In this document: piece after piece, positions 1 through 48,813 of the stretch
Layout: the number at the start of each line of letters is the position of its first letter
How positions within the stretch are numbered: position 1 is the stretch's first letter
Source of the DNA: Naegleria gruberi
Lineage: Eukaryota
Assembly (NCBI GenBank): GCA_000004985.1
Contig: GG738861.1
Strand: one strand, 5' to 3'
DNA length: 64,000 nt
Notes under the pieces: generated by a model
Seen by the model: only the letters and a program-made list of their open reading frames with translations
Database searches by the model: none
What the model was told of the DNA's origin: nothing
Position numbers and translations under genes: made by a program

Positions 1-554
1 ACCCAAACCCAAACCCAAACCCAAACCCAAACCCAAACCCAAACCCAAACCCAAACCCAAACCCAAACCCAAACCCAAACCCAAACCCAACCACCCAAAC
101 CCAAACCCAAACCCAAACCCAAACCCAAACCCAAACCCAAACCCAAACCCAAACCCAAACCCAAACCCAAACCCAAACCCAAACCCAAACCCAAACCCAA
201 ACCCAAACCCAAACACAAACCCAAACCCAAACCCAAACCCAAACCCAAACCCAAACCCAAACCCAAACCCAAACCCAAACCCAAACCCAAACCCAAACCC
301 AAACCAAAACCCAAACCCAAACCCAAACCCAAACCCAAACCCAAACCCAAACCCAAACCCAAACCCAAACACAAACCCAAACCCAAACCCAAACCCAAAC
401 CCAAACCCAAACCCAAACCCAAACCCAAACCCAAACCCAAACCCAAACCCAAACCCAAACCCAAACCCAAACCCAAACCCAAACCCAAACCCAAACCCAA
501 ACCCAAACCCAAACCCAAACCCAAACCCAAACCCAAACCCAAACCCAAACCCAA
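1..554. repeat. Telomeric repeat array (CCCAAA)n, TTTGGG on the G-rich strand, about 92 units
   Basis: Strict 6-nt periodicity from base 1 to 554, with a few variant units (about 86-96 CCCAACCA, 214-219 CACAAA, 304-309 CCAAAA, 370-375 CACAAA). The C-rich strand reads 5'->3' inward from the window edge, as expected for a left chromosome end. Confidence 0.95.
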
Positions 555-1861
555 TGTAACTTTCCATGCTTCGCTGGCTGGTAGTAGTAATCTTTGAGAA
601 TGCATATTTGTTAACCCTAATATTACTTGATGCTGTTAAACTAAAATCATAATCGAATTGAATCTTGAAATTACCATTTGCCTTATCAGTCCAGAAACAT
701 TTTGGCTCAGTACCAAGCAATGCCAAGTCATCACCGTGAATCAACTTGGAGCATGGAACTGTATTTGCACTGTATGAAGGTGGAGCAAATAATTTGAGGG
801 TAACTCCATCAAATAGTTCATTAATTTGAGCATAAATTTCATTGACATAGCTTGAATTGAATGATCCAAAGTATGTTGCACAGTCACCTCCAAAGTAGCC
901 ATTCATACAATCATTACAAGAAGTTCCATTCCAGTGGCCATTATCTCTATCTTGATAGCAAGAGCATTTTCCAGTAGCGTCACAATTACCATTACCATTA
1001 CAAGTTGTTTGATCATTACAATACATATCACAATTTGACCCATAGTAATTAGTCTTACACTTTTCACAAATAAATCCATCAAAATTGCCTGTACAAACAC
1101 AAGTATTGTTGCTTCCACAAGATCCACCATTCAAACAAGTTGAGTCGGTACAATATCTCTCAGTACATGTTGTACCAGTGTAGGCAGGATGACATGTATT
1201 ACAATCAGATCCATAATAATGGCCATTTATGTGATCATTAACACATGAACAAGTATTGACATCTACACATTGACCATGTCCTGAACAAACATTGGAGCTA
1301 CTCTTTGAAATAGAATTACAATCAAATTGATCACACTTTTCACCATAGTATCCTGAATCACATGCGCATTTTCCAACACCACTTGTAGAATTGATAAAAC
1401 ATTTACCATGATTTGAACAAACTCTAAAATCAGTACTTGAGTAATAATCTTCAACGCCATTATAAATACCTATACAAAGTAAGTTTTCACAAGAATCACC
1501 TGTAATCTTGACTCCATAAATTGACAAGCAGGAACACTTATCAATATCTAAACAAGTACCTCTTCCTGAACAAACTTTTGCATCCATAGAAGAAATGCCA
1601 TAACAAGTTGTGTCTTGATAATCTTGACAATCTTTACCTCCATATCTCAACTGGCATATACACGTGTCAATATCAGTACAAACACCTCTTCCTGAACAAA
1701 CACTTGGATCGAGTGAAGTTTTACCAAAACAAGTTTTAACCTGACAATCTTTATCTCCATATCCATAAGAGCATTGACAATGACCATCTTCAAAACATTT
1801 GCCCTTTCCACTGCAAACAGTTGGATCATCTTGTCTCTTTCCATTACAACTTGTGATATTA
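555..1861 (-). pseudogene. Telomere-truncated paralogue of the giant EGF-repeat gene at 2770-10271 (internal fragment, about 435 open codons, no start and no stop)
   Basis: Hand translation of the minus strand is open across the whole segment (NITSCNGKRQDDPTVCSGKGKCFEDGHCQCSYGYG ... CNDCMNGYFGGDCATYFGSFNSSYVNEIYAQINELFDGVTLKLFAPPSY ... [34 protein letters not shown]). It is collinear with the part of the full gene encoded at about 5390-6481. The upstream end is lost in gap 1862-1911 and the downstream end abuts the telomere. Confidence 0.8.
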
Positions 1862-1911
1862 NNNNNNNNNNNNNNNNNNNNNNNNNNNNNNNNNNNNNNN
1901 NNNNNNNNNNN
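1862..1911. other. Assembly gap (50 N)
   Basis: Run of n. Confidence 1.
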
Positions 1912-2769: not shown

Positions 2770-5700
2770 TTATGATAGGTTGGCATAATAAATCACATTC
2801 GGCACTAGATTAAGCCAAAAAAAAAAACATCGGGAATATTCCTCAACAATCATAGAGTAAATTATTGCAACATATTCCGTGGTTTCCATTGTTATAAATG
2901 ATGGAATGCTGATATTAACAAGAATAGTTTTGCTTACACCTTCCATTTCTGTTGGAATGGATGAAATGACAAAGTCTGAGAGATCGGTGAAATAAATCTT
3001 GTCCACTTGGACAGATAAAGAAGAAGTTTGTAAAACAACCGGATCAGCACTCACAGTTTGTTCCTTAACAACTGAATAAGCAAGTTGTTCAGTCACATTA
3101 ACCAATTGATCGTAAATAATGAGTTGTTCAAGAGTTGATGTAATATTTTCAACAGTCTTTTGCAAATTCTCAACAATTGACAAGACAGTTTGACTTGTTT
3201 CAGTTGAAATTTGAAGATTACTCTTAAGTGCTTGGTCAATTACTTCATTCAAAATAGAAATTGACTTATCAATAACTACTGGAACAATAATTTCATCGCA
3301 CTTAATCACAGAATAAACAGCATAAACAACCATTGATAAAGTTGACTCAATTGAGGTTTCCACTCTTGTAGTTTCCACAGCACTTGTAAGTGTACTAAGA
3401 AGTTGAGTTTGAATTTTAGTAATTGTTTCAGAATCTTGATGTTGAACTTGTGGTAAACTTTGCAACAATTGACTTGTTGAAACGATTGTATTAACAGTTT
3501 GTGAAATACTTTCAATTGGATTACCATCTTGAATGATGGCTAAAATGATTTCGGTTGTTTGATTGGACACCCGTTGCCAAATCTCTTCGACTGTGTTTAC
3601 CACAACTGTTGTCACTGTAATATTTGTGAACATGATTCTTGATTCTCCAGATTGGGTATCAGTCAATTCAACGAACCATTTAACAGGTGCAGATTGTGGA
3701 GTATTTGAACAAGAGGATACCACAGCAGGGATTTTAACAGTATCCTCCTTTGAGACTGGTACTTGAATTTTGATTCCAGTGTCACTATCTACATATCCTT
3801 GGGTGATTTGGATAGTATTTCGTTCATTTTGACAATTTACACATAAAACTTTGAATTCTGTTTCCATGGAAACGCCATTAGAAGGTGTAATACTACATGG
3901 ACATTTTTGTGGTTGAGTTCCTTTTGTAATTGTTGTTGAAATTTCGGTAGAAGCAATTTCAATACCATTAACAATATTAGATTCATTTGTTTGAACATAC
4001 GAAACTTTCAATGCAATACTATTTTCAGTTCCTTCATCAAATTCCCTAGCATCAATAATAATAGCACTTTGTGTATTCTTACTCACAACTTGAACATAAC
4101 TTGAAGTTGATAACATTGTGGTTGTCAAAAAAGAATCTCTTGATTCTATTCTTATAGTTTTACTCTCAGAAACAATGGAGTTGTCAATCTTCCATTCAGT
4201 TTTAATAGAAAGTGATGAATCTGATAAATCCTGTTTTGAGTGAGAGACTTCAATGGAAAACTTCTCATCACTTTTGACAACAGATTTAAAGTCTGGAGAA
4301 ATGTCAATAATATTGAGAATCGGAGGAAAATGAACAAAATTCAAAGTAATAGAACATGAAACCTTTCTTTCTCCTTTTGTAATGCTTAGAGTAAAAGTTG
4401 GTTTCTGTAAAGTTGAAACGGAAAAGTCAGATTTGTCAACATTGAAGAGAGTTAAATGATTCTTGGAATGGAAAGACATTTTGTCAACAACACCATCTCC
4501 ACAATAACCACCAGTTTCAGAATTGACACACGACCATTGCCATAATTCAGATTCGTCTGTGTTGTTTTCTGGATCTTGATAATTGACTTGAATTGTTGAT
4601 GAATAATTACTCACTCTCTTCAATGAAAGATAAAGTGAAAGGTCAGGTTGTTCTGTGTAAATTATCACATAATCGCTCGATGATAAACTTGAATTTTGTG
4701 CAGCTGTAATTGAAATTTGGAAAACGAATTTCCACTTTCCCTTAATGAAACTGTCAATAATCAAATTATTGTAAGCGTCCCTCTTGAATGAAAGGGATGG
4801 ACCCTCAATTTGTTCCCATTCAATATTAATTGTTTCATTCTTCAAATGGTCTGGAATTGTAGTTGTCTTTTTGATATGAACCGACTTTTCAGTTGACTTT
4901 TGTCTAATAATCTTACTACCTGAAATTACCACTGAAGGAACTTGATATTCAATAATTTGGAATGTGAAAATATTAATCGAACTGAATTCATTTGTTACTG
5001 TACTTCTCACAACTAGTGTCAACTTGTAAACTCCCAGTTTTAGTAATCCCTTATCAATCTTAATGGTTGCTTGCTTGTTGGATTTTAAGAAATTTTCAAT
5101 AGTTGAATTGATAGAGTTTCCCTCAATCTTCCAAGTATACTCCAGTTCTTTCCTATCTCCAGAGAAAGAGTATGATCCACTAAATATTATATCTTCTGTT
5201 TCACTGTAAATTCTTTTTGATGACTTCACATCAGCAACTGGACTTTTGACAGTATTTGGAGGCATTAAATAAATAATAGTGTCATCTATGATGGTTCTTG
5301 TAGAAAAAGCTCCAAGTTTGTTCAATCTTCTTGTAAGTGTAGTAAATAGATTTCTGTTCACTCTAAACTGGTTTCCTATGACTGACGAAGAGTTTAGAGT
5401 AAAATCATAATCGAACTGAATCTTGAAATCACCGTTTGCCTTATTAATCCAGAAACATTTAAGTTCTGTGCCGAATAATGGTTGATCATCTATGTAAATA
5501 AGTTTTGAACATGGAACAGAGTTTGGTAAATAGGAAGGTGGAGCAAATAGCTTAAATATCACACCATCAAAGTAATCCGTAACCTGAGAATAAATTTCAT
5601 TGACATAGGTTGAGTTGAATGATTCAAAATAAGTAAAACAATCGCTTCCAAAGTAACCAGTCTGACACGAGTTGCATGAGCTACCATTCCAATAACCATT

Positions 5701-8700
5701 CTTGGAATCTGAAAAACAAATACATTGTCCATTGGATCCACATTGACCATGTCCATTACAAGTTGATTGACTATTACAATAGACATTACATTGTGATCCA
5801 TAACTATTGGATTTACAAGTTTCACAAATCAATCCAGTAAAGTTTCCAATACAATCACAGCTATTATCAGTTCCACAAGAGCCACCATTCAAGCAAGTTG
5901 AACCAGTACATGTTTTAACATTACAATTTGGACCAGCATATGCAGGATGACAAATGTTACAATCAGATCCAGAATAGAAACCATTAGCACTATCTCTAAA
6001 ACATGAGCAAGTGTTAATTCCAACACAGTTACCATGTCCTGAGCAAACATTTGAGTTATTCTTGGCAATAGAGTTGCAATTAAACATTTCACACTTATCT
6101 CCGTAATATCCCGCAACACAGGAACATCCTCTTGTTGAGCAGTTACCATGCTTTGAGCAAACTCTATAATCATTGCTTGAATAAAAATCTTCAACATTAT
6201 TGTATACTCCTTTGCAAAGTAAGTTTTCACATTCATCACCAGTAATCTTTATACTGACACCGTTTGATGAAAAACATTGACAGGTGTCAATATCAGTACA
6301 AACACCTCTTCCTGAACAAACACTTGGATCGAGTGAAGTTTTACCAAAACAAGTTTTAACCTGACAATCTTTATCTCCATATCCATAAGAGCATTGACAA
6401 TGACCATCTTCAAAACATTTGCCCTTTCCACTGCAAACAGTTGGATCATCTTGTCTCTTTCCATTACAACTTGTTATATTACATTTAGATCCAAAAAATC
6501 CAATTAAGCATTTACATAAATCATTTCCTATACATTCACCTTTTCCAGAACAAACAACTGTATCTTCAAGACTTGAAATGCCAAAGCATTCAAAAGTTTG
6601 GACTGTAACAGCCGCATTCAATGAACAGTCTGCTCCAAAGTATCCAGCTGTACAATTACACTTATTTAATGAAAGACAATCACCATGTCCACTACAGACC
6701 TGTGATGAATTATATTCAACTCCTGAACATGTGTGGAATTCACATTCCATTCCAAAATATCCGACATTACATGCACATTGATCCACTTGAGAGCAATTAC
6801 CACGGTTTAAACAAGCACCATTTAGACCTTTTCCAAAACAAATTGGTGATGAACAATCTACACCTGCCCAATTTTGATTGCACGTACAATTATTTGGAGA
6901 GTTACATTGACCATGTGAGGAACAAACCAGTGATGAGTTTGAAAGAATATTGAAACATTTTGGGAGAGCACACCAATCTCCTCCGTACATAGTGTTGCAT
7001 TGACAAATACCACCCACACAAGTGCCATTAGATGAACATACTGATGGGTCATCCTTTGAAATGCCATTACATTTGAGTAGTTGACATTGGTTTCCTTCGA
7101 AATTAGGAGAACAGGAACATGTATCAACACCAGAACATGTTCCATGTCCAGAACAAACTGATGTTTCGTTTGACAATTTTCCAAAGCAATATGGGTATTG
7201 ACATTGTGGACCTCCATAGTCTGAGTTACATTGACATGAATCCAATCCAACACATGAACCATGGGAATTGCAAATAGATGAGTCGTTTTGTAAAGTCCCA
7301 TAACATGTTGTAATTGAACAATTAGATCCATAATAATTTGAAGAACATGAACACGAATTATAATCCATACAAATACCATGCCCTGAACAAACACTGGAAT
7401 TGGTTTTTGCTACAAAGTAACAATCAAAATCTTCACAATTAGATCCATAATAATTTGAAAAACATGAACATGAATTAAATGTTGAACATGTACCATATCC
7501 TGAACAAACCTGACTTGAATTAGAAAAGACTCCATTACATGTTGTAATTGAACAATTAGATCCATAGTAATTTGAAGAACATGAACACGAATTATAATCC
7601 ATGCAAATACCATGTCCTGAACAAACACTGGAATTGGTTTTTGCTACAAAGTAACAATCAAAATATTCACAATTAGATCCATAATAATTTGAAAAACATG
7701 AACATGAATTAAATGTTGAACATGTACCATATCCTGAACAAACCTGACTTGAATTAGAAAAGATTCCATTACATGTTGTGACTGAGCAATTGGCACCATA
7801 ATAATTTGATGAGCAGCTACAGGAATTATATGCTGTACAAGTGCCTTGATTAGAACAACCAGTGGTAATAGAGTTTGAATATCCATTACATGTCCAAGAA
7901 GAACAATTTGAATTGAAATAACCAGTTGAACAGAGATTACAATAACCTCCAGCATAATTCACATCACATGCAAGGTAAATTTTTCTGAGTTCATCGATTT
8001 CTGCAATTACCATCAAATTGCTATCGCTGGCAAAAGCTAAGCCTACAAGTGTATTGAACTTGGTATTGGCCAGAGTTTCTCCATCATTAAATGTGCCAGC
8101 ACTATTGCCAGCATATGACGATATTGTGCCCGTGTTAGCATTGGCAGCAGAGGGTGTGAAAAGTTTAAGCGCACCACTGTCAGTGTAGTATACATTACCG
8201 TTGTCGTTTACAAAAAAGTCTTTGATTGATACAGAAGAGGTCTTAATTAAGTTAGTTTAAACATTTGACCCAAAACTTACAGTACAAATTGTTGTAACTG
8301 TTGAAGCTGTGAAAACTTTTAGATAAAAAGTTGAACCGATTTGTTGAAAGTAATATATCTTTCCGTCAGAAGGTCTTATATTAAAAGAAACTAAAAGAAT
8401 TAAAAGAAAATGTCCGATAACTTACATAGTGATGCAATATTTGCTGATGAAGATGCACCATCAGAAGTGGAAGCACCCCCTCCCAAAACAACTTCAATCT
8501 TGCCAGTTAAAGAGTTGATTTTGTAAATGTAACTGTCTAATGCAAAATAGACCTCACCATTGTAATATTTTACATATTTGACAGACTAGAATAAATTGGA
8601 TATTCATTTAATATTCATTCATTTCAATATTATAAAAATACTTACAATAATAGTACAAGCAGTTGGAGTGTTTCCATTAGCACATACTGGTCCAGCTGAT

Positions 8701-13197: not shown

Positions 13198-16100
13198 ATG
13201 GCAATAATACAAAGAAGGACTGCAACAATTGCATCCTTGTTGATTATTGTATTATGGTATTGCTTCTGTACTCAACACAGCATTGAGGCGAGTAACCCAA
13301 AAGTAGTGGGTGTCGTATCAACTATTGGAACTGATCAAGATAATGTGAAGACTTTGTATGACTTTGGACCCGATTGGAATGAAGGTACATACGCTTACTG
13401 GGGTGTTTTCAATGGTTTTCAATCAGGAACAATCTTCTTTAATGGTGACACCACCCCATTATTGGCTGGGTTGAATCCATCCAACTATATGTGTGTGGTA
13501 ATGTATTCGTCAAACAAACCCTCAAATGAAATTGTTCAAAAGGGTTGCCTCTATTCATCAAAGCAATTAGATATATTCTCAGCGACTGCATCAGCATACG
13601 GCTTTTATGTTACTGTTAGAAATTTAGGTTCGGTAGTGATGGCTGAGCAAGAATTTCCACCAGGAACATTCATTACAAGATTAAACCTAGAAGCAATAAC
13701 AGTTGAAAATGGGGCCAAAGTTGTTCATTCCAATGCAACCAATTACGTTGCATGGAGTGGTATGGCACGTTTAGATTTCAAGGAAGCTGATTTTTTGGTT
13801 GTGGTTGGTAATGCTCAATGCTCTCTCTCAAGTCAGGATACTGACAAATTAATCTTTGAAGATTCGTCCGAGTTGACTCTTCCACATACATGCGAAATGA
13901 CTTCTTTCGCTGCTCTATACACTGCAACTTATGATTCAATGACCTTGGGAAAAAAGCAAATGATAGAACAAATTAACCAAAGAAGTACATTCATAAAGAA
14001 GGTTATCAAGTCATCTACTACTTCCTTCTGGGTATATGGTAATTTTGTTGACTATACTTTATTTGATAATGAGAGACGCTATGGAAAACAAGCTCCTTTC
14101 TTTAGTTATTATGAAATTGACCCAAGCAATACCCAACCTTTCACACGGAAACACAGTACGTATATTTCTTCGTTTCAACCAACATACTCGGCTGAAGCAA
14201 ACGATATGAAAATAATTCCAGCTGACGGACAAATTGAAATATACATTGTTGGTTATGTGGAAATACCAAGCTCATTTTTATGTTGCTTCTTGAAGATTGG
14301 TACTGCCGAGCCATATCGAGCTAGAAAGCTAGAAATTGAAGGTGATGTAGTATTTACAGGAATAGATACCAACACAAATACTCAAGAAGTAATCGTTACG
14401 GGTCACTTTGCAGGTACAATTCAAATTGGTTCCACCAAATTGACAAGTAGTGGAGGACGAGATATTGTGGTTGCTGCTTTCAAAAGAGTTACTTTAGATG
14501 CTGTTTGGGCTATTAAAGAAGGAGGCTCAAACGATGATTATTCATATGGAATTAAGAATAATAATAATGAATTCATATCAATTTTTGGCAAACTTGGCTT
14601 GAATCCAAAATTTGATGGTAAGAATGTATCTGTTTCTGTGTCAACTGCATCAAACGGATTCATTGCGCATTTATCAGATCCTAATTATTGTTATGGAATT
14701 GCTAGTAATACTGAGACTGTTTGTAATGGTCATGGTCAATGTCAAAAAGATGGCAGTTGCCTTTGTAGTTCAGGTTTTGGAGATCAGTGTGAATTCCCAA
14801 CTTGTAACGAAATACACTTTAATGAAACAAATGTTTGTAATGGGCATGGTAACTGCACTGATTATGATACTTGTTCCTGTAATGATGGATGGACTGGTGC
14901 TAATTGTAATATACCTGTTTGTTTTGGTGTTAGTGAAGGTGAAAGTTGCAGTCAACATGGTTCCTGCATTTCAAATAATACTTGTCAATGTAATAATGGA
15001 TGGTTTGGAAGTAACTGCTCAATTCATTCATGTAATGGAACAAGTTCACAAGATGAGCAAAATATTTGTAATAATGGCAATGGTATATGTGTATCTGCAG
15101 ATATGTGTTCATGTAACCAAAATTGGACAGGTCAATTCTGTGAAATTCCTAAATGTTTTGGATTGAATTCAAGTGATATTTCAGTTTGTTCAAGTCATGG
15201 GCAATGTATTAATGCTAACACTTGTAGTTGTAATAAGGGATGGTTTGGAGCTGATTGTTCAATTCATTCATGTAATGGAACAAGTTCACAAGATGAGCAA
15301 ATCGTTTGTACTAATGGCAATGGTAAATGTGTATCTACAGATATGTGTTTATGCAATCAATATTGGACTGGACAATTCTGTGAAATTCCAAAGTGTTTTG
15401 GATTACCAGCAAACGATTCAAATGTATGTGCTGGTCATGGTAAATGTCTCTCCCCTGATGTTTGTTCTTGTAATCCTAAATGGTTTGGGGCTAAGTGTAA
15501 TTTCCCATCTTGTTTTGGAATTCCATTTTACAATTCTTCAGTTTGTTCCTCCCATGGCCAATGCATAACCTTGGACACATGCAAATGTCTAGATGGATAT
15601 GATGGAGAAACTTGTTCCTCTCATTCATGCTTTGGTTTTAAATCCAATAATGACTCGAGAGCTTGTACGAATGGTCAAGGAAAATGCACAGGTGCTAATC
15701 AATGTACTTGTTTGGAATCCGAAAGTGGAAGAGCAATAGGTCCACAATGTGAAACGATTTTATGTAAGGCAGGAGTTGATATGTGGTTACCACAAAAAGA
15801 TCCAAAAGTTTGTTCTCAACATGGTATATGTAAATTCAACATGTCAACTGTTGGATGTTTTTGTGAGGAAGGTTACGAAGGGCCAATATGTCAGTATCCA
15901 ATCTGCTATGGAATTTCATCGAATTCAAAGAAAGTTTGCAATGGAGTTGGTAAATGTAATGCTCCAAATAACTGTTCATGTTTTGATAATGATATTGATG
16001 GTCACTTTGTTGGAACAAATTGTGACAAGTGTAAAATTCCATACTCTGGAATTAATTGTACTGTTATTGAAAAGTGTAATGCTACATTGAAATGCAATTC

Positions 16101-19100
16101 ACATGGTACATGTGATGACTATGGTTTCTGTACTTGTTTCCAAGACGAAACTAACGGTTATTGGAATGGAACTAATTGTAATACTTGCAATGATGGATTT
16201 TATGGAGAAGATTGCATGACTCAATTGTCCAATGTACATTTCAATAATGAAGGAAATGGATTACTTTTCCAAATGACCTCTCCAAATCATTTCACATCCT
16301 TAAATGTTGATTGTAACAATTTATTAGATTCTTCAAGTATTTCCTCATTTGGTTCAAATGTAGTTTGTAGATATTCTAATAAGACATCCAATGATTTTAT
16401 TATTGAATTGGGAACTGATAATTCTATTCAAGTTGATCAAGAAATTTTATTGAATAGAAATGTGTTTAATAGAAACAAATTAGGAAATGATTATCAATCA
16501 TTCAAAATTGGAAATGCTGAAAATCCCATTCCACCAACAATTTTAATTTCTCAAAAAACAACATATTCAAGTTGTGAAAATATTCTATTGGATGCAAGTG
16601 AAAGTTATTCCACAGATGGAAAACAAATTTCCTATAAATGGGAAATTGTATCTTCCAACATGATGACACTTCCAAACAATAATTCAAGCAAACTGTCAAT
16701 CACCTATGACAGTATAAATGCTGGAAGTCATACTTTCAAACTGACAACTACAAGCCAAAGTTTGAAAACATCCTCATCCAAGCAAATCACATTCCAAAAG
16801 TTGAATTATGCAACACCTGTCATTTCTATTGAAGGAAGTGACAGCCTTTCACTTTCAACAAGCTCATTGCCTTTGATTGTAAGAAAATTAATCACCTTAC
16901 CTTCTTGTTTACCTTCAAAATCTGAAATTATTGTAAAATGGGAATATTTGAGTGGAACTGGAATGGAATATCAAGTTGACTCTACNNNNNNNNNNNNNNN
17001 NNNNNNNNNNNNNNNNNNNNNNNNNNNNNNNNNNNGATGGTTTGGAGCTGATTGTTCAATTCATTCATGTAATGGAACAAGCTCTCAAGATTTACAAAAT
17101 GTTTGTAATGGAGGAAGAGGTCAATGTATTGACACTGATATTTGCTCATGTAATGAAACATGGACAGGTCAATTCTGTGAAATTCCTAAATGTTTTGGAT
17201 GGAATTCAAGTGATAATTCAGTTTGTTCAACTCATGGTCAATGTATTAATGCTAACACTTGTCAGTTGTAATAAGGGATGGTTTGGTAGTAACTGCTCAA
17301 TTCATTCATGTAATGGAACTAGTTCACAAGATGTGCAAAACGTTTGTAATGGAGGAAATGGTCAGTGCATTGGAACAGATTTGTGTTTGTGTAACCAAAA
17401 TTGGGCTGGTCAGTTCTGTACTATTCCTAAATGTTATGGCGTTATTTCTACAGACGCTACAGTTTGCTCTACTCATGGTAACTGTACTGATATTAATACT
17501 TGCCAATGTAATACAGGTTGGTTTGGTCCATTATGTAGTATTCACTCCTGCAATGGAACTAGTTCACAAGATTTAAAACACGTCTGCAATGGTGGTAATG
17601 GAGTATGCATTCAAATGGATAAGTGTGATTGTAAATCTGGTTGGACAGGCCAGTTCTGTGAAATTCCGAAGTGTTTTGGTTTAGCTTCAACTGATAAAAA
17701 AGTGTGTGCTGGTCATGGAGGTTGCATGAGCTCTGATAAATGCTCTTGTAATAATGGATGGTTTGGAGCTGATTGTTCAATTCATTCATGTAATGGAACA
17801 AGCTCTCAAGATTTACAAAATGTTTGTAATGGAGGAAGAGGTCAATGTATTGACACTGATATTTGCTCATGTAATGAAACATGGACAGGTCAATTCTGTG
17901 AAATTCCTAAATGTTTTGGATGGAATTCAAGTGATATTTCAGTTTGTTCAACTCATGGTCAATGTATTAATGCTAACACTTGTAGTTGTAATAAGGGATG
18001 GTTTGGAGCTGATTGTTCAATTCATTCATGTAATGGAACAAGTTCACAAGATGAGCAAATCGTTTGTACTAATGGCAATGGTAAATGTGTATCTACAGAT
18101 ATGTGTTTATGCAATCAATATTGGACTGGACAATTCTGTGAAATTCCAAAGTGTTTTGGATTACCAGCAAACGATTCAAATGTATGTGCTGGTCATGGTA
18201 AATGTCTCTCCCCTGATGTTTGTTCTTGTAATCCTAAATGGTTTGGGGCTAAGTGTAATTTCCCATCTTGTTTTGGAATTCCATTTTACAATTCTTCAGT
18301 TTGTTCCTCCCATGGCCAATGCATAACCTTGGACACATGCAAATGTCTAGATGGATATGATGGAGAAACTTGTTCCTCTCATTCATGCTTTGGTTTTAAA
18401 TCCAATAATGACTCGAGAGCTTGTACGAATGGTCAAGGAAAATGCACAGGTGCTAATCAATGTACTTGTTTGGAATCCGAAAGTGGAAGAGCAATAGGTC
18501 CACAATGTGAAACGATTTTATGTAAGGCAGGAGTTGATATGTGGTTACCACAAAAAGATCCAAAAGTTTGTTCTCAACATGGTATATGTAAATTCAACAT
18601 GTCAACTGTTGGATGTTTTTGTGAGGNNNNNNNNNNNNNNNNNNNNNNNNNNNNNNNNNNNNNNNNNNNNNNNNNNCCAAATGACAGCTAGACCACTAGT
18701 TGTTAACTTGATCCAAATTGAATCAACAATTGACCAAGTAATAATTGAGATTGAAGAAATTGATTCTGATTTGCAAACTATTCCATTCGAAAGAGAATGG
18801 TCCACCAATAATTTGAATAACAATGACAACATATTACAATATCTATCATCTATCAAGAATAATACATTAACAATTACAAAATCATTAGTGAACGGTGCTT
18901 CTCAATTCGACATTTCATTAAGGTCAAGTAAGGTTTCCAGATATTCCACTTCAACTCTCTCCATTTTATTCCCAGAATCTCCTGAACAAATTCCACCTTC
19001 AATAACACCAGCTAACTCGCCTCCATCAAAATTGAATAAGGGAACTTTATTAAGCGTACAAAGTATTGTTTCGAGTGCAAGTAACAATATTATTAGAGAA

Positions 19101-20900
19101 TGGACAATGAATGGTCAATCTATTCCTTCAGAATTGACAAGAAATATGAGAATGCAACTTTCTGAGTCTGACGAATTAATTTTGGACACATCTTCTTTGA
19201 CAGAAGGTGCAACTTATCAAATTTCTTTCAAAGTTACTAATGTTGATTCTTTGTTATCTGCTTCATTGAATCATTCATTTGTAATCAACAAATCACCAAA
19301 ACCATGTGACTGTCAAGTGTCACCTTTGAGTGGTATTGCAATGACAACAATATTTACTTTCAATTGTCCAAAATGTCAAAACGATCAGAATAGTAATACT
19401 TTTGAATATGGTTTTATTGATGACTTTTCAAAATCCAACTTTCCACTTTCTAAAACAGAAGAATTATATCAAAAACTTCCAATGCCAAATTCTGGAAACA
19501 AATTAGATCTTTATGTCAAGGTAATTGATTCATTGACAGGATCTAGCTCCATAACAACCAAACAAGTTACCATTTCTCTTCCGGTTGTCAAAAGTTTAGC
19601 AGGAATCAAAAAGTTAACAGCCTCATGGAACCAAATAGCAACATTGGCTCCTGTTGGTGATTATCAACGAAGTGTTTTCAATACTGCAACCATTTCTAGA
19701 ACAATGAATTTATTATTTAAGAGTATAAGTTCAAAGAGAGATTTTTGTAATGGAAATGGACAATTTAAAGATGGGAAATGTGTTTGCAATTCTGGATTTA
19801 CAACAAGTAATTGTAAATGGTCCACTGAAGATTTTGAATTTATTCAATCTTTAATTAGAGATTTATTGAATGATTTTATGGGTTCAAGTCAAATCATGAC
19901 AACCGCTTCAGAATCAACAAATAGAAATTACATTACAAATTTATTATTTGGATTGAATTCAATTTCACAAAATTCTGAATATCTTTCTAACCAAATGGTC
20001 AACTCTAGTTTAATTTTATTGAGAGATGCTTTGGTATCAGTTCAATCAAGTACCACCTTTGTTCTGTCTAGAGGAGATTTGGTCAACTTGCAAAATATTT
20101 TGAACTTACAAGAAAATTTAATGGATGGTGAAAAATTATTGGAAACTGTTGAATTATTAGGGCAAGTTTTATTGAGAAATGTTTTAATTGGTCAAATACC
20201 ATTTAAATTTGAAACTAACAGTTATTTGACAGTTTTAAACAAACATTTCAAGAATCAAATGAATGGAATGAAATTCGAAAGTGAGATGGTGAATATCACG
20301 TTACCATGGAACATTTCATCTCTCTTGAAAACTAATTCAATCAAGTCACCAATCAAGTACAGATGGAATATTCAAAAAAATACAGACACCATTGCAATTG
20401 CAAATCAACCTGGAAAGATAATATCAATCAATTCAGTTGTGAATAGTTTACAACTTGATCCTTCACCTCAATCTTATTCGAAATACTTATTCGACATTGA
20501 GATGAAACAATACGACAGTCAGGCAGCTTATGTTTGTGCTAACATTGGATCAGCATCATTGGAAACTGATTGTTCCATTTCTATCAAGAATAACCAAATA
20601 GCAACTTGTGAATGCTCTTCATTAGGATATAATCTTGTAATTCTTGAATACAAATCCATTGAAAATCATGTATCAACCTCCTCTTCATCAAATTCAAATA
20701 TAATTGTCAAAAAACCTCCAACGAGCAATCCATTAATGTGGTTATTATTGTTACTAGTCCTCATTCCACTTACTGCCCTACTAATTGCAGTAATTGTATG
20801 GTTTGTAGTAAAGAAACTGGGTAAAGATAAGAATAATACAAGAAATCCATACATGCAAACACAAGAAAGCAGTTCTACAATTGAATTGAAGCATGTTTAA
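13198..20900 (+). CDS. Giant type I membrane protein: signal peptide, beta-propeller-like N-domain, EGF array, PKD/REJ-like region, GPS-like motif, single TM, short tail
   Basis: One reading frame from an ATG in an A-rich context (13198) to the stop at 20900. It is broken only by two 50-N gaps and one 1-nt frameshift at about 17263. N-terminus: IASLLIIVLWYCFC. About 80-aa EGF double modules: WFGxxCSIHSCNGTSSQD...WTGQFCEIPKCFG. REJ-like: ILLDASESYSTDGKQISYKWEI. GPS-like: TCECSSLGYNLVIL. TM: LMWLLLLLVLIPLTALLIAVIVWFVV. Confidence 0.85.
16986..17035. other. Assembly gap (50 N)
   Basis: Run of n. Confidence 1.
17036..18626 (+). repeat. Gap-bounded contig made only of EGF modules, duplicating earlier parts of the same gene
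   Basis: About 17990-18626 appears identical to about 15232-15868 (offset 2758). 17036-17270 is nearly identical to 17756-17990 (720-nt super-repeat). Confidence 0.8.
18627..18676. other. Assembly gap (50 N)
   Basis: Run of n. Confidence 1.
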
Positions 20901-23571: not shown

Positions 23572-26500
23572 TTAAAGCATTAACAAGCACATCATGATTG
23601 AAACCAGTAAGGAAACACTGAACGAAATCATTGCAACGTTGTTGACACGAGCTGAAACCTTTGGAATAAAAGGAGCAGGAGAAGATTTTGGAGAGACAAC
23701 AGGTGTTGGAATAGCCTTTGGTTGAGCAGTTAACAAATATTTGCCAGTTGAAGAGACAGAAACAGTTACAGAGTTACTGGTCTTGGAAATGACTGAACAA
23801 CTGGTTGAGAGTTGATAATTATTGGTTGCTGAATTGTAAACTTGACAATAGACATCATATGCAGAAACCGATCTTGCCATTGTTATATCCTTTGAGGTAG
23901 AGAAGGTCAATTCGGCAATAGAACTTGAACTAGAAACGGTAACTGCAGATTTTTCAGCAAGAGAAATATCAAGAGCATCTGAAACAGAGTTGGTGACTCC
24001 GCCACTTGATGATTTTACCTTAAGAATGAGAGTCTTGTAATTAGAAACAAGATCAGAAAATTTAGCTGCCATTTTGAACTTATTTCCATTAATAATATCT
24101 TGTAAATTATTCAAAGTTGCAATATTGACCTTTCTTGAATAAGTAGTTGTTTGATTAGCAACAATATAGTTGGCTGGAAGGTCAGCAACTGTATCCTTAA
24201 CGAGAGCGCTTGATAAACTGTCATACGTAGCTTGAATATTAGTAATATCAGAATTGGAGAATGATCTCTTTGAAACACCCTTTGCTACAATAAATCTATA
24301 GAATTTATCAGCAGCTTCCTTCGCCTTTGTCAACAGTTCAGTAGCCAATTTAACTTCATCACTCGAAGCAGCATTAGCAGCAGTTTGAGCAAGATTGGTG
24401 ATCATCTTGGAAATAATGTCATCGACAATATATTCCAAACTTGAAGTACCAGAAGAAATCATTGACAATTTAGAGGAGGCAGAGTTAGTATTTTCAGAAG
24501 CAACAGATTGAGCCTTTGCTTGATTGTCCAAATAGGAAAGAATCATATTGGAAGTCAATTTTGCAATTTCAGCTTTTTGCTCAGCAGTTGCACCAGCAAT
24601 AGAGCTAACAACCTTAATGACAGCAGATACGGAAGCAAGGGTTGGTGTTTCCTTCGCAGTTGATTCAATAGAATTCACTGCTTGAGTGGTAGTTGGTTGA
24701 GTAACAGCTACAGAAATTTCAGATTCTGTAAATGCCAACTTGGAATCATAAACTGCAACTTTAAGACGGAGTTGAGAACTGCTTGAAGAAGGTAATTTGA
24801 TTCTTGTAGATCTAGTTTCAGTTCTCTCCGTCAATGCAGTCCAAGAGGATGAAATGTCATCATAATAGAAGAATTGATAGGTAAGTGGCAACTGAGAGTC
24901 TGTCCAACCATTTCCACATTTCAATTCGAATAAGGTACTGAGAGCAACACCAGATTGTGGACTAGCTTCGAAAATACCTCTTGTTGGAGGAGAGTTTACA
25001 TTAACACTTGTTGTAGCAACACCATTCTTTGAACCATCAGTAATATTCAAACTAATAGAGTATGAAGCGCCAGCACTCAACAATGATTTTGGAATCTTGA
25101 TAAAGCTGGAAGTTTGGGTGAGTGATGATAAATCAAACTTATCAGAGAACCAGAAGAAGGTTGGAGATGATAAAACTTCAAGAGAGGAATAGGTCAAATA
25201 CAAATCAGATGATGGGCTAACAAGTGAAAGATCGCTATTAGAAGTAATTGAAGCTCTAATCAAAGTATTCTTTGGAACGGACTTAGCTTTAACAATTAAA
25301 TTAGTTGATGCAGATCTTGATCCCTTAACAACAGTAGCAGTATACTTGTATTCACCAGCAGAGAGGAATGTGGAGAAGGTTCTTTGATTTAAATTTGGAG
25401 AAGAACATGACTTAATGTTGACAATATCAAAACATGTGATAGTGACAGTTTCTGAATCAGACGTACTACTTGGATCAACAACTGCAACAGAGAAATCCAA
25501 TGAATCTTGAGTTGATTGAGTAATGTCAGAAATGTTGAATTGAATAGTCAAATCTTGAGCTACAGCAGTTACCTTGAAAGGAAGAAATGCATCGTTAGCA
25601 TTGTCAGAAACAGCCCTAAGGATAAAGTAATAATCGCCTTCCTTATTAATATCAGTGAAGGATTTACCAATAGCGAATAAATTATTACTAGATTTTGGAG
25701 TTACAACTGATTTAGAGGCTGAAGAAGTATCAACAGAATAGGTATAATCAGTTTGATAATTTCCAGAATAACACTTTGGGAATTTGATGACTGGTGTCAA
25801 TACAATAGTAGATCCAATCATGTAAGTCACAGAAATACCTTCACTGAGTGATAGAGTTGGAACTGGATTGCTAACAACATTCACGGTAACACTTGATGTG
25901 GCAACTTTAGAGAATGCAGTTGTGACAGTAACTTGAATAATGAATGATCCACCAGAAATTGCACTCAATGAAGAGGAGCTGAAATCGACAATAGCGCTTG
26001 AAGTTTTAACACCACTCAAGTAAGTATTCAAAGCATTCATTTCACCAACAGTTGGACCGTTAGTGACATACCAAGAGAATAACAATGCACGACGATCTGA
26101 TGAAACTGATCCAGAAGCATCCAAATATAGAGTATCACACTTGGAAACAGAGCTCTTATCAGAAACTAGATTAACACTTGGAGGAAGTGCAACAAATGTA
26201 CCAGAAGAAACTGTAACAGACAATGTTTCAGCGCTTCCTGGGAATTTGAATAATCTCAAAGAATTACCTGGTACAATATTTGCACTGGTTCCTAATATAA
26301 TTTCCAAAGAGGAAGTTGCAGAATTCAAAATACATTTAGCATCAGAACCTATCAATGATAAATCAGAGCTAGAAATGACATCTGAACAATCTGATTGTTT
26401 CAATAAACTTGATTTGACTTCACCAATAATTGACCCACCAGTTGAAGTGAAAACAAAACTATTAGAATTAATTTGGAAATCACAATTGCTTCCAAACCAT

Positions 26501-28425
26501 CCATTCAAACACTTGGCACAATTACTGGAAGCATCAAAGTTTCCATAACAAGTACATGAGCCATCATTATTACAGTAACCTTTAGAGGAACAATTACTAA
26601 CACTATTACAAGTAATTGAGCAACTGGAACCAACAAATCCACTAGCACATTGATCACAATATGTACCAACAAAGTTACCTTCACAAACACATTTCAAATT
26701 AACACAATTACCTCTGGAATTACAAGTTTGAACTCTATCACAAACTGGAGTGTTACAATTAGCTCCTGAATAATCAAGTGAGCAGCTTGAACAAGATTTA
26801 CCATCATTGTAATTAATTGGACATGAACACTTATTAGGAGCTGAACAAATACCACGAGATGAACAAACACTAGAGCTTGACTTGTCAATTCCATAACAGC
26901 TAAACGTTTGACAAGCTGTACCATTATAACCTTCAGAACAATGACAGATATTTGGAGCAATACATGAACCCTTTCCAGAACAAACTCTATTATCGGTAGC
27001 ACTAATTTCAAAACAAACGGGAATATCACAATTATCACCAACAAAACCATCAACACATTTAGAACAAAACTTGGATGAATCAAAGTTACCATTACAAGAA
27101 CAAACATCCTTTGAAACACATGAACCTCTATACGAACATCCTCCTTGAGATTCACTCAATCCATTACAAGTAGTGTATTGACATCTATCACCAGTGTAAC
27201 CACTATTACATTCACAAGTATTTGGGGCAGTACAATTACCTTGTTTGTTACAACCAGATGTACCTGTTTGATTGTTACAAAGTGGAATAGTACAATCACT
27301 ACCAGTATATCCACTACCACAAACCATAACACTACACTGAGAACCAGTAAAACCTGGATAACAATCACATTGATCTTTTCCTATACATTTACCCTTACTT
27401 GAACAAACAGATGAAGAATTACTCAAAGTATTAAAACATCTTGTTTCAGAACAAGATGGACCTTCCCAACCACTCTTACATGAACATTGATTTAGTGATG
27501 AACAGTTACCATTAGATGAACAAACACTTGATTGATTGGCCAAAATACCAAAACATGAAGTAATTTCACACAACTTGCCATAGAATCCACTATTACATTG
27601 GCAAGTATTTGGACCAACACATTGACCATTTCTTGAACAAACAGTTTGATTGGAGTTGGTTAAACCAGAACAAGAATATGTTTGACATTCAGAACCAATG
27701 TAACCACTCTTACATAAACAGCTATCAACAGAAACACAAGTTCCTGATCCAGAACAAACAGATGAATCAGTAAAATTCTTTCCAAAACATTGATGAATCT
27801 GGCATTCTAATCCACTGTATCCATTATTACATTGACACATATCTTGAGAAATACAAGTACCTTGATTACAAGCTTCAGCTCTTGGCTTAGTGAAACATGT
27901 GATATTCTTTGAGACACAAGTATTTGGAGCAATACATGTATCGTATTGTCCACAGGATTGAGTTTCGTTAGCCAAATAATTATTGCAAATTGGCATGTTA
28001 CAAACACCAGCAGGTCCATAACCTGATTTACATTCGCACTTGTCAAAATCACTGCAGATACCTTTCGAAAAACAAACTTGAGGTGATTGAGAATCGATGC
28101 CATTACAAGTTGTAAAAGAACAATTGTCTCCGTGGTAATTTGTTGAGCAGATACAATCATCGAGACTAGAACATGAACCATGGGATGAACAAACCTTGGA
28201 ATCGTTAGCTGGAGTACCATAACAGGAAGGAATTTCACAGAATTTTCCAATAAATCCATTAACACATATACAACCGCCATCCAGACATGTTCCATTACCA
28301 TTACAGATATTTTCCAAATGAGTAGATCCACATTTAACTGGTTCTGGTTGTGGGGTTTCCGTTGTTGTTTCATTACAGAATGTTCCATTGATATTTGAGT
28401 TACAAATACAGACACCGTTCAACAA
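23572..28425 (-). CDS. C-terminal 1617 codons of a giant EGF / PKD-REJ-like surface protein with a GPI-signal-like hydrophobic end
   Basis: Long ORF. EGF modules are followed by YLDASGSVSSDRRALLFSWYV (PKD/REJ-like), a long Ser/Thr-rich region and the C-terminus VAMISFSVSLLVSIMMCLLML. The first residues (NGVCICNSNINGTFCNETT) continue the repeat of the upstream ORF, so the M at 28425 is not a real start. Confidence 0.8.
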   Translation of the reverse strand: MLNGVCICNSNINGTFCNETTTETPQPEPVKCGSTHLENICNGNGTCLDGGCICVNGFIGKFCEIPSCYGTPANDSKVCSSHGSCSSLDDCICSTNYHGDNCSFTTCNGIDSQSPQVCFSKGICSDFDKCECKSGYGPAGVCNMPICNNYLANETQSCGQYDTCIAPNTCVSKNITCFTKPRAEACNQGTCISQDMCQCNNGYSGLECQIHQCFGKNFTDSSVCSGSGTCVSVDSCLCKSGYIGSECQTYSCSGLTNSNQTVCSRNGQCVGPNTCQCNSGFYGKLCEITSCFGILANQSSVCSSNGNCSSLNQCSCKSGWEGPSCSETRCFNTLSNSSSVCSSKGKCIGKDQCDCYPGFTGSQCSVMVCGSGYTGSDCTIPLCNNQTGTSGCNKQGNCTAPNTCECNSGYTGDRCQYTTCNGLSESQGGCSYRGSCVSKDVCSCNGNFDSSKFCSKCVDGFVGDNCDIPVCFEISATDNRVCSGKGSCIAPNICHCSEGYNGTACQTFSCYGIDKSSSSVCSSRGICSAPNKCSCPINYNDGKSCSSCSLDYSGANCNTPVCDRVQTCNSRGNCVNLKCVCEGNFVGTYCDQCASGFVGSSCSITCNSVSNCSSKGYCNNDGSCTCYGNFDASSNCAKCLNGWFGSNCDFQINSNSFVFTSTGGSIIGEVKSSLLKQSDCSDVISSSDLSLIGSDAKCILNSATSSLEIILGTSANIVPGNSLRLFKFPGSAETLSVTVSSGTFVALPPSVNLVSDKSSVSKCDTLYLDASGSVSSDRRALLFSWYVTNGPTVGEMNALNTYLSGVKTSSAIVDFSSSSLSAISGGSFIIQVTVTTAFSKVATSSVTVNVVSNPVPTLSLSEGISVTYMIGSTIVLTPVIKFPKCYSGNYQTDYTYSVDTSSASKSVVTPKSSNNLFAIGKSFTDINKEGDYYFILRAVSDNANDAFLPFKVTAVAQDLTIQFNISDITQSTQDSLDFSVAVVDPSSTSDSETVTITCFDIVNIKSCSSPNLNQRTFSTFLSAGEYKYTATVVKGSRSASTNLIVKAKSVPKNTLIRASITSNSDLSLVSPSSDLYLTYSSLEVLSSPTFFWFSDKFDLSSLTQTSSFIKIPKSLLSAGASYSISLNITDGSKNGVATTSVNVNSPPTRGIFEASPQSGVALSTLFELKCGNGWTDSQLPLTYQFFYYDDISSSWTALTERTETRSTRIKLPSSSSSQLRLKVAVYDSKLAFTESEISVAVTQPTTTQAVNSIESTAKETPTLASVSAVIKVVSSIAGATAEQKAEIAKLTSNMILSYLDNQAKAQSVASENTNSASSKLSMISSGTSSLEYIVDDIISKMITNLAQTAANAASSDEVKLATELLTKAKEAADKFYRFIVAKGVSKRSFSNSDITNIQATYDSLSSALVKDTVADLPANYIVANQTTTYSRKVNIATLNNLQDIINGNKFKMAAKFSDLVSNYKTLILKVKSSSGGVTNSVSDALDISLAEKSAVTVSSSSSIAELTFSTSKDITMARSVSAYDVYCQVYNSATNNYQLSTSCSVISKTSNSVTVSVSSTGKYLLTAQPKAIPTPVVSPKSSPAPFIPKVSARVNNVAMISFSVSLLVSIMMCLLML

Positions 28426-28509
28426 GTTCCATTATAATAGCAATTATTTTCTTCAACGGTTGATCCACAGTTTAATTGGTTCAGTGGAACAGAGTATTCT
28501 GGTGTGCTT

Positions 28510-31428
28510 TCATTGCAAATGTTCCGTTAACGTTGTATTGCAAATACAAATACCATTTACACATGTTCCGTTACCATAACAGGCATTTTCTTCCAATGTT
28601 TCACCACATTTAATTGGTTCAGGATGTGGGATAACTGGTTCTGTATTTGTTTCATTGCAATATGTACCATTAATGTTTGAATTACAAATACAGACACCAT
28701 TAATGCAAGTACCATTTCCATAACAAATATTTTCATATTCAGTGATACCACATTTAACAACTGGTTCTGGTTGAGGTGTTGGAGTTTCAGAAGTCTCATT
28801 ACAGAAGGTTCCATTAACGTTTGTATTACAAATACAAATACCATTTACGCATGTTCCATTTCCATAACAATTATTTTCCTCAATGGTTGTTCCACATTTA
28901 ATTGGTTCAGGTTGTGGAATTATTGGTTCAACAATGGTTTCATTACAGAAAGTACCGTTTGAGCCACCTAAACATGAACAAATACCATTCAAACAAGTTC
29001 CATTTCCATAACAATTATTTTCTTCAACGGTTGATCCACATTTAATTGGTTCAGGTTGGGGAATTGGAGTTTCTGGAGTTGTTTCATTACAGAATGTTCC
29101 GTTTACATTAGAGTTGCAAATACAAATACCATTTACACATGTTCCGTTACCATAACAGGCATTTTCTTCCAATGTTTCACCACATTTAATTGGTTCAGGA
29201 TGTGGAGTAACAGGTGCTGATGTTGTTTCATTACAATATGTACCATTAATGTTTGAATTACAAATACAGACACCATTCAAACAAGTTCCATTTCCATAAC
29301 AATTATTCTCATCTTCAGTGAAACCACATTTAACAACAGGTTCTGGTTGAGGCTCATGACTTGTTTCATTACAGAAGGTTCCATTAACGTTGGTAATACA
29401 AACACAAATACCATTCATGCAAGTTCCATTTCCATAACAATTATTTTCTTCAATGGTTGATCCACATTTAACTGGTTCAGTTGGAATTTGAGGTTCTGAA
29501 GCAGTTGTTTCATTACAGTATGTTCCGTTCATACCCTCAACACAGATGCACAATCCATCAAGACATGTGCCGTTACCATAACAATTGCTTTCTTCCTGAG
29601 TTGTACCACAAATAATTGGTTCAGGTTGTGGAGAATCAGAATTTGTTTCATTGCAATATGTACCATTTACGTTTGAATTACAAGCACAGACACCATTGAT
29701 GCAAGTTCCATTTCCGTAACAGTTGTTTTCTTCCATGGTTGATCCACATTTAACTGGTTCAGGATGAGGAATTGGAGTTTCAGGAGTTGTTTCATTACAG
29801 AATGTTCCGTTTACCTTTGAATCACAAACACAAATACCATTTAAACAGGTTCCATTACCGTAACAGTTATTTTCTTCCAATGTTTCACCACATTTGACAG
29901 GTTCTGGTTCTGGAGTAACTGGTTCTGTAGTTGTTTCATTGCAGAATGTGCCATTAACATTCTCAAAACATACACACAAGCCATCAACACAAGTACCATT
30001 TCCAAAACAGTTATTTTCTTCTTCGGTCGAACCACATTTAACTACTGGTTCTGGTTGAGTTGGATCTTGAGTTGTTTCGTTACAGAATGTACCATTCACG
30101 CCAATAAAACAAATACAAACACCCTCAATGCATGTACCGTTACCATAACAAGTATTTTCTTCTATAGTTTCACCACATTTGACAGGCTCAGGAACAACTG
30201 GATCTGGAGATGTTTCGTTACAGAATGTACCATTAATATTCTCGTTGCAAACACACAAACCATCAACACATGTTCCATTTCCGTAGCAGCTATTTTCTTC
30301 TGTTGTTTCGCCACATTTAATTGGTTGAGTTGGAACTTGAGGTTCAGTAGGATTAGTTTCGTTACAGAATGTACCATTAACATCTTGATTACAAACACAG
30401 AATCCATTTACACAACTTCCATTGTTGTAGCAATTATTCTCTTCCAAAGTTTCACCACATTGTAAAGGTTGTGGAATTTCAGGTTCTATATTTGATTCAT
30501 TACAGAATGTACCATTTGCGCCTTCTTTGCAAATACAGGAGCCACCAATACAAGTGCCATTACCATAGCAGTTATTTTCATCTTCTGTAAAACCACATTT
30601 AACTGGCTCTGGTTGAGTTGGGATTTCAGGAGCTGTTTCGTTACAGAAAGTACCATTAGCGCCTTCAATACAAACACACAGTCCATCAAGACATGTTCCA
30701 TTACCATAACAATTACTTTCTTCCTGAGTTGTACCACAAATAATTGGTTCAGGTTGGCTGGGAACTGGACTGGTTTCGTTACAGAATGTACCATTACTAC
30801 CTTCATTGCAAGTACAAAAACCATTCTCACACGTACCATTGCCATAACAATTATTCTCTTCTTCTGTAGTACCACATTTAACCAATTCTGGTTGTGGTTC
30901 CATGCTGAAGGTTTCATTACAAAATGTACCATTAACATTCTCGTTACAAATACACAAACCATCGACACATGTACCATTACCATAACAAATATTTTCATCT
31001 TCTGTGAAACCACAGTTAACTGGTTGAGTAGGGACTTGTGGTTCTTGAGTTGTTTCATTACAGAATGTACCATTCACACCTTCAATACATATGCAGAAAC
31101 CATCGACACATGTACCATTACCATAACAATTTTGTTCTTCCAATGTTTCACCACAAGTGGTAATGGTATCATTACAGAATAAACCAATGAAACCTTCTGA
31201 ACATTGACAAACACCACGAGTACAATTACCATTAGAATAGCAAGATTGTTCATCTAATGTTTCACCACAGAAAACATCCTGACATTCCATTGTACCCAAG
31301 AGGTCACATGTCTGGGACAATAAACATTCAGTGTCTGAACTGCATGTTGCTGATACGAGACCAACAGCAGCAATTACAGAAAGTACAATTAAAAGTATTG
31401 TTGTTTTGAACAGCAAGTTACTTGCCAT
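28510..31428 (-). CDS. N-terminal 972 codons of the same gene: signal peptide plus about 20 tandem 41-48-aa EGF-like modules with Pro/Thr/Glu linkers
   Basis: MASNLLFKTTILLIVLSVIAAVGLVSA is a signal peptide. The reiterated unit is KCGxTxEENNCYGNGTCxxGxCxCxxxVNGTFCNETT + PxPxPEPV. The frame ends inside a degenerate unit at about 28510. Confidence 0.8.
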   Translation of the reverse strand: MASNLLFKTTILLIVLSVIAAVGLVSATCSSDTECLLSQTCDLLGTMECQDVFCGETLDEQSCYSNGNCTRGVCQCSEGFIGLFCNDTITTCGETLEEQNCYGNGTCVDGFCICIEGVNGTFCNETTQEPQVPTQPVNCGFTEDENICYGNGTCVDGLCICNENVNGTFCNETFSMEPQPELVKCGTTEEENNCYGNGTCENGFCTCNEGSNGTFCNETSPVPSQPEPIICGTTQEESNCYGNGTCLDGLCVCIEGANGTFCNETAPEIPTQPEPVKCGFTEDENNCYGNGTCIGGSCICKEGANGTFCNESNIEPEIPQPLQCGETLEENNCYNNGSCVNGFCVCNQDVNGTFCNETNPTEPQVPTQPIKCGETTEENSCYGNGTCVDGLCVCNENINGTFCNETSPDPVVPEPVKCGETIEENTCYGNGTCIEGVCICFIGVNGTFCNETTQDPTQPEPVVKCGSTEEENNCFGNGTCVDGLCVCFENVNGTFCNETTTEPVTPEPEPVKCGETLEENNCYGNGTCLNGICVCDSKVNGTFCNETTPETPIPHPEPVKCGSTMEENNCYGNGTCINGVCACNSNVNGTYCNETNSDSPQPEPIICGTTQEESNCYGNGTCLDGLCICVEGMNGTYCNETTASEPQIPTEPVKCGSTIEENNCYGNGTCMNGICVCITNVNGTFCNETSHEPQPEPVVKCGFTEDENNCYGNGTCLNGVCICNSNINGTYCNETTSAPVTPHPEPIKCGETLEENACYGNGTCVNGICICNSNVNGTFCNETTPETPIPQPEPIKCGSTVEENNCYGNGTCLNGICSCLGGSNGTFCNETIVEPIIPQPEPIKCGTTIEENNCYGNGTCVNGICICNTNVNGTFCNETSETPTPQPEPVVKCGITEYENICYGNGTCINGVCICNSNINGTYCNETNTEPVIPHPEPIKCGETLEENACYGNGTCVNGICICNTTLTEHLQ

Positions 31429-32610: not shown

Positions 32611-32751
32611 ATTGCCCTATCATCATTGCAATAATATAATTAATGAAAGACTTCCAATACGGCCCAAACCATTTGCACCACCCAAACAATCAAGTTTGCG
32701 ATTGAAAGATTTTCAAGTTTGCGATTGACTCTTCAACACATAAAGTAAAGT

Positions 32752-48755: not shown

Positions 48756-48813
48756 TAAATCCTTAAATAATATCGTTAACAAGTTTGAAATTTAATTAAA
48801 TCTCATATTCTCT

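Follow-up and report, generated by a model that had tools for sequence, protein, structure and literature searches.

In the terminal deletions of yeast and humans (e.g., those of 16p in alpha-thalassaemia), a chromosome breaks, telomerase primes on a few G/T-rich bases of microhomology, and the distal genes are lost. The progenitor chromosomes are known in those cases and the microhomology can be measured, unlike at the probable Naegleria chromosome end that we describe here. The closest described systems are found in other protists. In Plasmodium falciparum 3D7, telomere repeats are fused to or lie next to coding regions at 5 of the 28 chromosome ends, and four of these junctions fall inside truncated var genes (Calhoun et al. 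2017, PMC5550746). Chimeric var genes arise by recombination near such healed ends, and synthesis by telomerase is reported to begin at sites where a few bases pair with its template (PMC5550746; Zhang et al. 2019, PMC6532940). The amoeba Acanthamoeba castellanii adds telomere repeats to introduced DNA ends, with no common motif at the junctions (PMC11995660). For Naegleria gruberi, TTTGGG is a candidate telomere repeat, inferred in silico and reported from the assembly in a survey of eukaryotic telomeres (PMC3622300). Beyond this candidate repeat, we found no literature on Naegleria chromosome ends, and the telomere and subtelomere biology of the Heterolobosea is almost undescribed.

We analyzed a 64,000-nt stretch of the N. 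gruberi NEG-M draft assembly (the window) that opens with an array of TTTGGG repeats fused to an open coding frame. Judged from the sequence, this is probably an NEG-M chromosome end where telomerase healed a terminal deletion within a subtelomeric gene. As at the P. falciparum healed ends, the repeats are fused into a gene of a subtelomeric surface family and leave a pseudogene truncated at its 3' end, standard subtelomeric elements, if Naegleria has any, are absent, and the DNA is that of a long-cultured clonal laboratory line (Calhoun et al. 2017, PMC5550746). Like the chimeric var genes, the Naegleria fragment is a hybrid that changes abruptly and in frame from one family member to another, beside a putative healed end (Zhang et al. 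2019, PMC6532940). The two systems differ in that Naegleria is a free-living heterolobosean amoeba, not a parasite, and its family carries EGF repeats and REJ domains and, unlike var, has no known role in antigenic variation. Unlike the P. falciparum healed ends, the Naegleria junction is known from a draft assembly and not from long reads (PMC5550746). The Naegleria switch, unlike that of a chimeric var gene, could equally be a short gene-conversion tract or an overlap with the neighboring gene. A. castellanii would resemble Naegleria as an amoeba with telomere repeats on DNA ends that were not telomeric, but it is an amoebozoan, and the substrate was transgenic plasmid DNA rather than a chromosomal gene (PMC11995660).

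The event is of a textbook kind; the example in a little-studied lineage is new, and the gain is local rather than conceptual. If the junction is verified, TTTGGG arrays really cap N. gruberi chromosomes, the Naegleria telomerase is able to heal breaks within genes, and a large family of EGF/REJ membrane proteins sits at a chromosome end, where it is being truncated and recombined. The features on which we base this reading are collected in Table 1.

Table 1. Positions of the features discussed, in window coordinates, and the evidence for each
Feature	Position	Strand	Evidence
Telomere repeat array (TTTGGG)n	1..554	-	TRF and direct reading of the sequence
Gene/telomere junction	550..556	-	Codon-level reading; TRF array boundary at 554
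Unique part of truncated gene: EGF repeats and linker preceding the REJ domain	555..1662	-	blastn, Pfam
Contig inner edge	1663..1861	-	blastn and alignment
Scaffold gap, 50 N	1862..1911	.	Exactly 50 N; placeholder, not a measured distance
Neighbor paralogue, EGF repeats and REJ domain	2770..8016	-	ORF list; Pfam REJ 6e-20, EGF_TEN 2e-44
EGF/REJ family member	13198-20900	+	ORF, Pfam EGF and REJ; signal-peptide-like N terminus
EGF/REJ family member	23572-28425	-	ORF, Pfam EGF and REJ
EGF/REJ family member	28510-31428	-	ORF, Pfam

A terminal TTTGGG array fused to an open coding frame

On the plus strand, the array reads CCCAAA, and TRF reported a period of 6 nt with 92.0 copies and 98% matches. 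About four to five units are variants, among them CCACCC, AAACAC (twice), and AAACCA. A preliminary description of this DNA, made from the sequence alone, had noted that TTTGGG repeats are free of stops in any frame, and all three minus-strand frames do read through the array with 0 stops. No second CCCAAA or TTTGGG dimer was found elsewhere within the 64-kb window. The array has the orientation of a true chromosome end, being C-rich on the plus strand, with the G-rich strand running 3' outward. To our knowledge, this is the orientation at every known telomere.

The window sequence stops inside the array at base 1, and the array could therefore be interstitial, for example the scar of an old fusion or the product of telomerase repairing a break inside the gene, with the scaffold ending there only because the assembler failed to get across the repeat. 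We regard this as highly improbable. Interstitial telomeric arrays are usually short or degenerate; this one is at least 554 nt long at the purity given above, has the orientation of a true end, and is the sole such array within 64 kb. Our favored reading is that the array is the physical end of the chromosome.

The junction on the minus strand reads ...AGT TAC A/TT GGG TTT GGG, where the slash marks the boundary. Base 555 is the last certainly non-telomeric base, and the first partial repeat, TTGGG (554 to 550), can be assigned to the gene or to telomerase. Up to 5 nt at the junction are thus possibly gene-derived and might match the telomerase template, for which about 3 to 6 nt would be expected at a healed end. 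On the gene side, the minus-strand frame from 1860 to 556 contains 435 sense codons, ends with ...SQRSMESY, and continues as I(GF)n without a stop to base 1, which bears out the earlier claim that an uninterrupted frame of about 435 codons runs straight into the telomere. The remaining two frames of the gene part contain 61 and 9 stops, and the chance of a 435-codon open frame at the given base composition is about 3e-15.

Similarity to the paralogue is traceable to about 7 codons (about 20 nt) from the junction, which leaves no room for filler DNA or a subtelomeric repeat between the gene and the telomere. The array is fused directly to coding DNA, and the gene part is unique within the window. 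Terminal erosion had been offered as an alternative to breakage; we do not favor such slow loss for a junction where pure repeats meet unique DNA. The suggestion that any transcript would be non-stop holds as a statement about the sequence, in which the frame is stop-free, but it presupposes a promoter and 5' exons that lie outside the assembled sequence. If still transcribed, the fragment could give only a non-stop message.

The fragment as a remnant of an EGF/REJ gene

The unique part of the fragment aligned to 5394 to 6249 of the neighboring paralogue with 72.6% DNA identity by blastn, and relative to the paralogue, it has one additional EGF unit at about 1510 to 1659. Pfam matches to EGF_2 (3e-14) and EGF_Teneurin (2e-11) showed that tandem EGF-like repeats of the teneurin/tenascin type are present in the fragment. 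The REJ domain (PF02010) was absent from the fragment by Pfam and present in the paralogues at 2770-8016, 18678-20900, and 23572-28425. Neither a signal peptide nor a C-terminal membrane anchor lies within the assembled fragment.

We estimated the extent of the missing part from two relatives. The fragment aligns to about residue 905 of the neighboring 1748-aa ORF, where about 840 codons follow, and to about residue 415 of P0043, a complete relative of 1412 aa, where about 1000 codons follow. Relative to its paralogues, the fragment is therefore missing about 840 to 1000 codons, which include the REJ domain and the transmembrane helix. The earlier figure of more than 1000 codons beyond the equivalent point of the neighbor was too high, and about 1000 applies only in comparison with P0043. 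The term "surface protein" used in the same description is fair at the level of the family, whose other members have a signal peptide, EGF repeats, a REJ domain, and a transmembrane helix and may well be located at the cell surface, but it does not extend to a fragment that has neither the REJ domain nor the anchor. The fragment is best explained as the remnant of an EGF/REJ gene and not as a complete member, and it would be a recent pseudogene fragment.

A comparison of the fragment with its neighbor over the 319 aligned codons outside the identical block described below gave a dN/dS of 0.17 and a dS of about 1.3, and all 36 of 36 cysteines are conserved between the two. These values show past purifying selection and indicate an old family member, distinct from its neighbor, whose evolution was that of a functional gene. 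Among the 3915 single substitutions possible in the 435 codons, 231 create a stop, and an intact frame implies that less than about 4% of neutral change has accrued since the gene was inactivated (95% confidence, before indels are counted). Since the frame is still intact, the truncation was probably recent relative to the age of the copy.

HMMER, run in full against 1.84 billion representative proteins, ranked P0043 nearest to the fragment, with 57% identity. P0043 originates from an ENA metagenome, and its NEG-M counterparts, EFC41042 and EFC41041, are on another scaffold. P0043 is a different family member and not a twin of the fragment. No near-identical intact twin was found among the 1.84 billion representative proteins by HMMER or in the word-index searches. 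A word-index protein search with the full 435 aa had a best match of 39% identity, and one with the unique 115 C-terminal residues returned two candidates, neither of them significant, so that these residues matched no protein of any genome or transcriptome in the collections searched; these negatives are weak, since the word-index search overlooked relatives that HMMER found. The fragment and the 2770-8016 paralogue were themselves not among the 1.84 billion representatives of the HMMER scan, where other N. gruberi members are. Because JGI evidently annotated neither the fragment nor its neighbor, the lack of a twin in protein databases is weak evidence. At the nucleotide level, the junction 26-mer had 0 matches in the JGI metagenomes, and a scan of JGI metagenomes returned no relatives of the fragment and no related locus. 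In the part of the window from 1 to 32000, JGI/NCBI gene models seem to be absent for the terminal fragment and the 2770-8016 paralogue.

A 3'-truncated neighbor in a cluster of EGF/REJ genes

The neighboring gene, which encodes 1748 aa, points toward the telomere. It had been taken for a full-length paralogue, but it is itself 3'-truncated. Its homology to P0043 ends at P0043 residue 1213, at about window position 2821 and near a T11 run, and compared with P0043/NAEGRDRAFT_71165, it is without the last approximately 200 residues, which include the transmembrane helix. No counterpart of these missing C-terminal residues was found anywhere in the window. The approximately 860 bp that follow the end of the paralogue homology (1912 to 2770) are unrelated DNA that includes an orphan ORF at 1949 to 2512, for which we found 0 homologues and 0 Pfam matches. 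As the neighbor is also without its 3' end, two consecutive family members are 3'-truncated at this locus.

The EGF/REJ genes across the first 31 kb are a subtelomeric cluster. In the relatives of the fragment within the window, EGF repeats are followed by a REJ domain, with E-values for PF02010 from 6e-20 to 7e-39. A transmembrane helix is found at the end of the 18678-20900 ORF, as it is at the end of P0043. Tandem repeats with a period of 144 nt (about 20 copies, 67 to 70% matches) extend in a long array over 28364 to 31155 and encode EGF units of the gene at 28510-31428.

An identity switch at the inner edge of the contig

At the inner edge of the terminal contig, bases 1664 to 1854 are identical to 6284 to 6474 of the neighboring paralogue (191 to 192 nt), and blastn reported 99% identity over 202 nt. 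The sole mismatches at this edge are at 1855, which is 7 nt from the end of the contig, and at 1663, which is the boundary. Past this boundary, identity is only about 72%; the drop is sudden, keeps the reading frame, and coincides with the DIDTC motif of an EGF unit. A change of sequence at equivalent positions of the frame points to recombination or gene conversion in vivo, unlike what random chimeric cloning would give. The contig most likely stops at 1861 because reads beyond this position would collapse onto the paralogue. We also considered the fragment as a mis-assembled copy of the neighboring gene and rejected this, since the two share only 72% identity beyond the 192-nt block. Given the identity at its inner edge, the fragment would be a recombinant copy or an alternative end.

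The second of these possibilities can be phrased as an allelic end. The paralogue of one homologue would have recombined at about 6283 with a telomere-capped family member, through break-induced replication or ectopic exchange, and the contig would overlap 6284 to 6474 instead of lying beyond 1912. We count this as one form of the healed end, so that its probability is contained in that of the healed end and does not add to it; the junction would be real in both, and the placement and history would differ. We hold this variant only tentatively and think it rather doubtful. It accounts for 191 identical nt followed by an abrupt in-frame switch, and it agrees with a gap at the floor value, which is expected from a negative distance estimate, and with a gap too small for the 5' half of the gene. 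There is also a precedent in P. falciparum, where subtelomeric ends including the telomere were copied between chromosomes and gave chimeric var genes (PMC5550746). However, the block of identity would follow just as readily from gene conversion of a tandem copy that is truly distal, and the donor member was not found in the databases searched.

Placement of the terminal contig

The terminal contig is 1.86 kb long and, as the preliminary description had pointed out, is joined to the rest of the scaffold only through a gap of exactly 50 N. The window has four gaps, three with exactly 50 N and one with 1021 N, which indicates that 50 is a placeholder value. To be complete, the gene would require 1.5 kb or more of ORF beyond the 5' end of the identical block, and probably over 3 kb once upstream exons are counted. 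A gap of 50 N is too small for the missing 5' half, which takes at least 1.5 to 3 kb. The next contig begins 37 nt before the orphan ORF, which is on the opposite strand, encodes 187 aa, and is unrelated. The terminal contig may be a distal tandem copy separated from the scaffold by a much larger gap, or else an alternative end whose true connection to the scaffold is at about 6283. Its placement leaves the telomere-gene junction itself unaffected.

Another small contig of this scaffold is clearly misplaced. The 1.6-kb EGF contig at 17036 to 18626 is 96% identical over 883 nt to 14989 to 15868. It has a 50-N gap on either side and splits the REJ-domain region of the gene at 13198-20900 in the middle. 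Almost certainly, it is a redundant or allelic contig that was scaffolded in the wrong place. The coding order across window positions 16986 to 18676 is ...KWEYLSGTGMEYQVDS, then the gap, the contig, and the second gap, and then QMTARPLVVNLIQIES.... The first approximately 20 kb of the reference scaffold are hereby flagged as unreliable, with misplaced small contigs and with family members that are unannotated and truncated.

These observations bear on the possibility that the junction is an artefact of assembly or cloning. In that case, an intact internal family member would have been joined to telomere reads by a chimeric clone or by greedy extension, and mate pairs in the near-identical paralogue would have parked the small contig at the scaffold end. 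The size of the contig and its linkage through a placeholder alone are consistent with such an error, as are the misplaced EGF contig and an inner edge identical to sequence 4.4 kb further into the scaffold, to which mate-pair links could be drawn. The junction is also absent from the independent data sets searched. Even so, we consider an artefact unlikely. The gene part is unique: its nearest copy in the window is 72% identical in DNA, and the nearest protein in the databases is 57% identical. Were the gene intact, normal-coverage reads past the junction should outcompete a chimeric read. The array has the correct orientation for a terminus, for which a random chimera has even odds, and an array of 554 nt together with 1.3 kb of gene requires several reads. 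Misplacement of the contig alone would not falsify the telomere-gene junction.

A model for a probable healed end

The preliminary proposal of chromosome breakage with de novo telomere addition agrees with the terminal repeat, the direct fusion, the direction of the gene toward the end, its intact frame, and the missing 3' half. These features are observed, whereas the physical end of the chromosome, telomerase as the maker of the junction, and the recency of the event are what we infer from them. In our model, a break would have occurred inside a subtelomeric gene of the EGF/REJ membrane-protein family whose transcription runs toward the chromosome end. The broken end would have been resected to ...GTTACA(TT), and TTTGGG repeats would then have been added straight onto the exon. 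All distal DNA would have been lost, and with it the approximately 840 to 1000 codons that carry the REJ domain and the membrane anchor. The same copy would also have exchanged sequence with its neighbor, which is where the 5' side identical to the paralogue up to the in-frame switch would come from. The fragment would then be a distal tandem copy that gene conversion has made uniform with its neighbor, or an allelic end composed of the 5' half of the paralogue and the 3' segment of another member.

A broader scheme can be drawn from this locus, although we think it very unlikely. Naegleria chromosome ends would be without a buffer of subtelomeric repeats, telomeres would be reseeded inside EGF/REJ arrays, and cycles of breakage, healing, and ectopic recombination would produce truncated and chimeric family members. 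If this were true, a free-living amoeba would share the diversification engine of the malaria var genes, and the telomere-capped fragment, the in-frame hybrid boundary, and the 3'-truncated neighbor would be traces of that engine.

Other features of the window

Four ORFs of the window are exact matches to the N. gruberi NEG-M proteins EFC45734, EFC45850, EFC45851, and EFC45853, which belong to a 507,294-bp scaffold of the JGI draft, and the actin encoded in the window matches N. gruberi actins. We rejected a ciliate or diplomonad origin of the DNA on account of these exact matches and of the long ORFs in the standard code. The actin genes at 32747-33982 and 40475-41710 encode identical 377-aa products and form an inverted duplication with arms of 1236 nt that are 98% complementary and 6.5 kb apart. 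The only tRNA gene in the window is a tRNA-Gly(GCC) on the minus strand at 56593-56664. A metagenome contig (ENA ERZ929261, run ERR1078381) is 98.7% identical to the window at 44909-51424 only and carries about 600 bp of additional DNA at about window position 45390. Its 98.7% identity indicates that a close N. gruberi strain was present in that sample.
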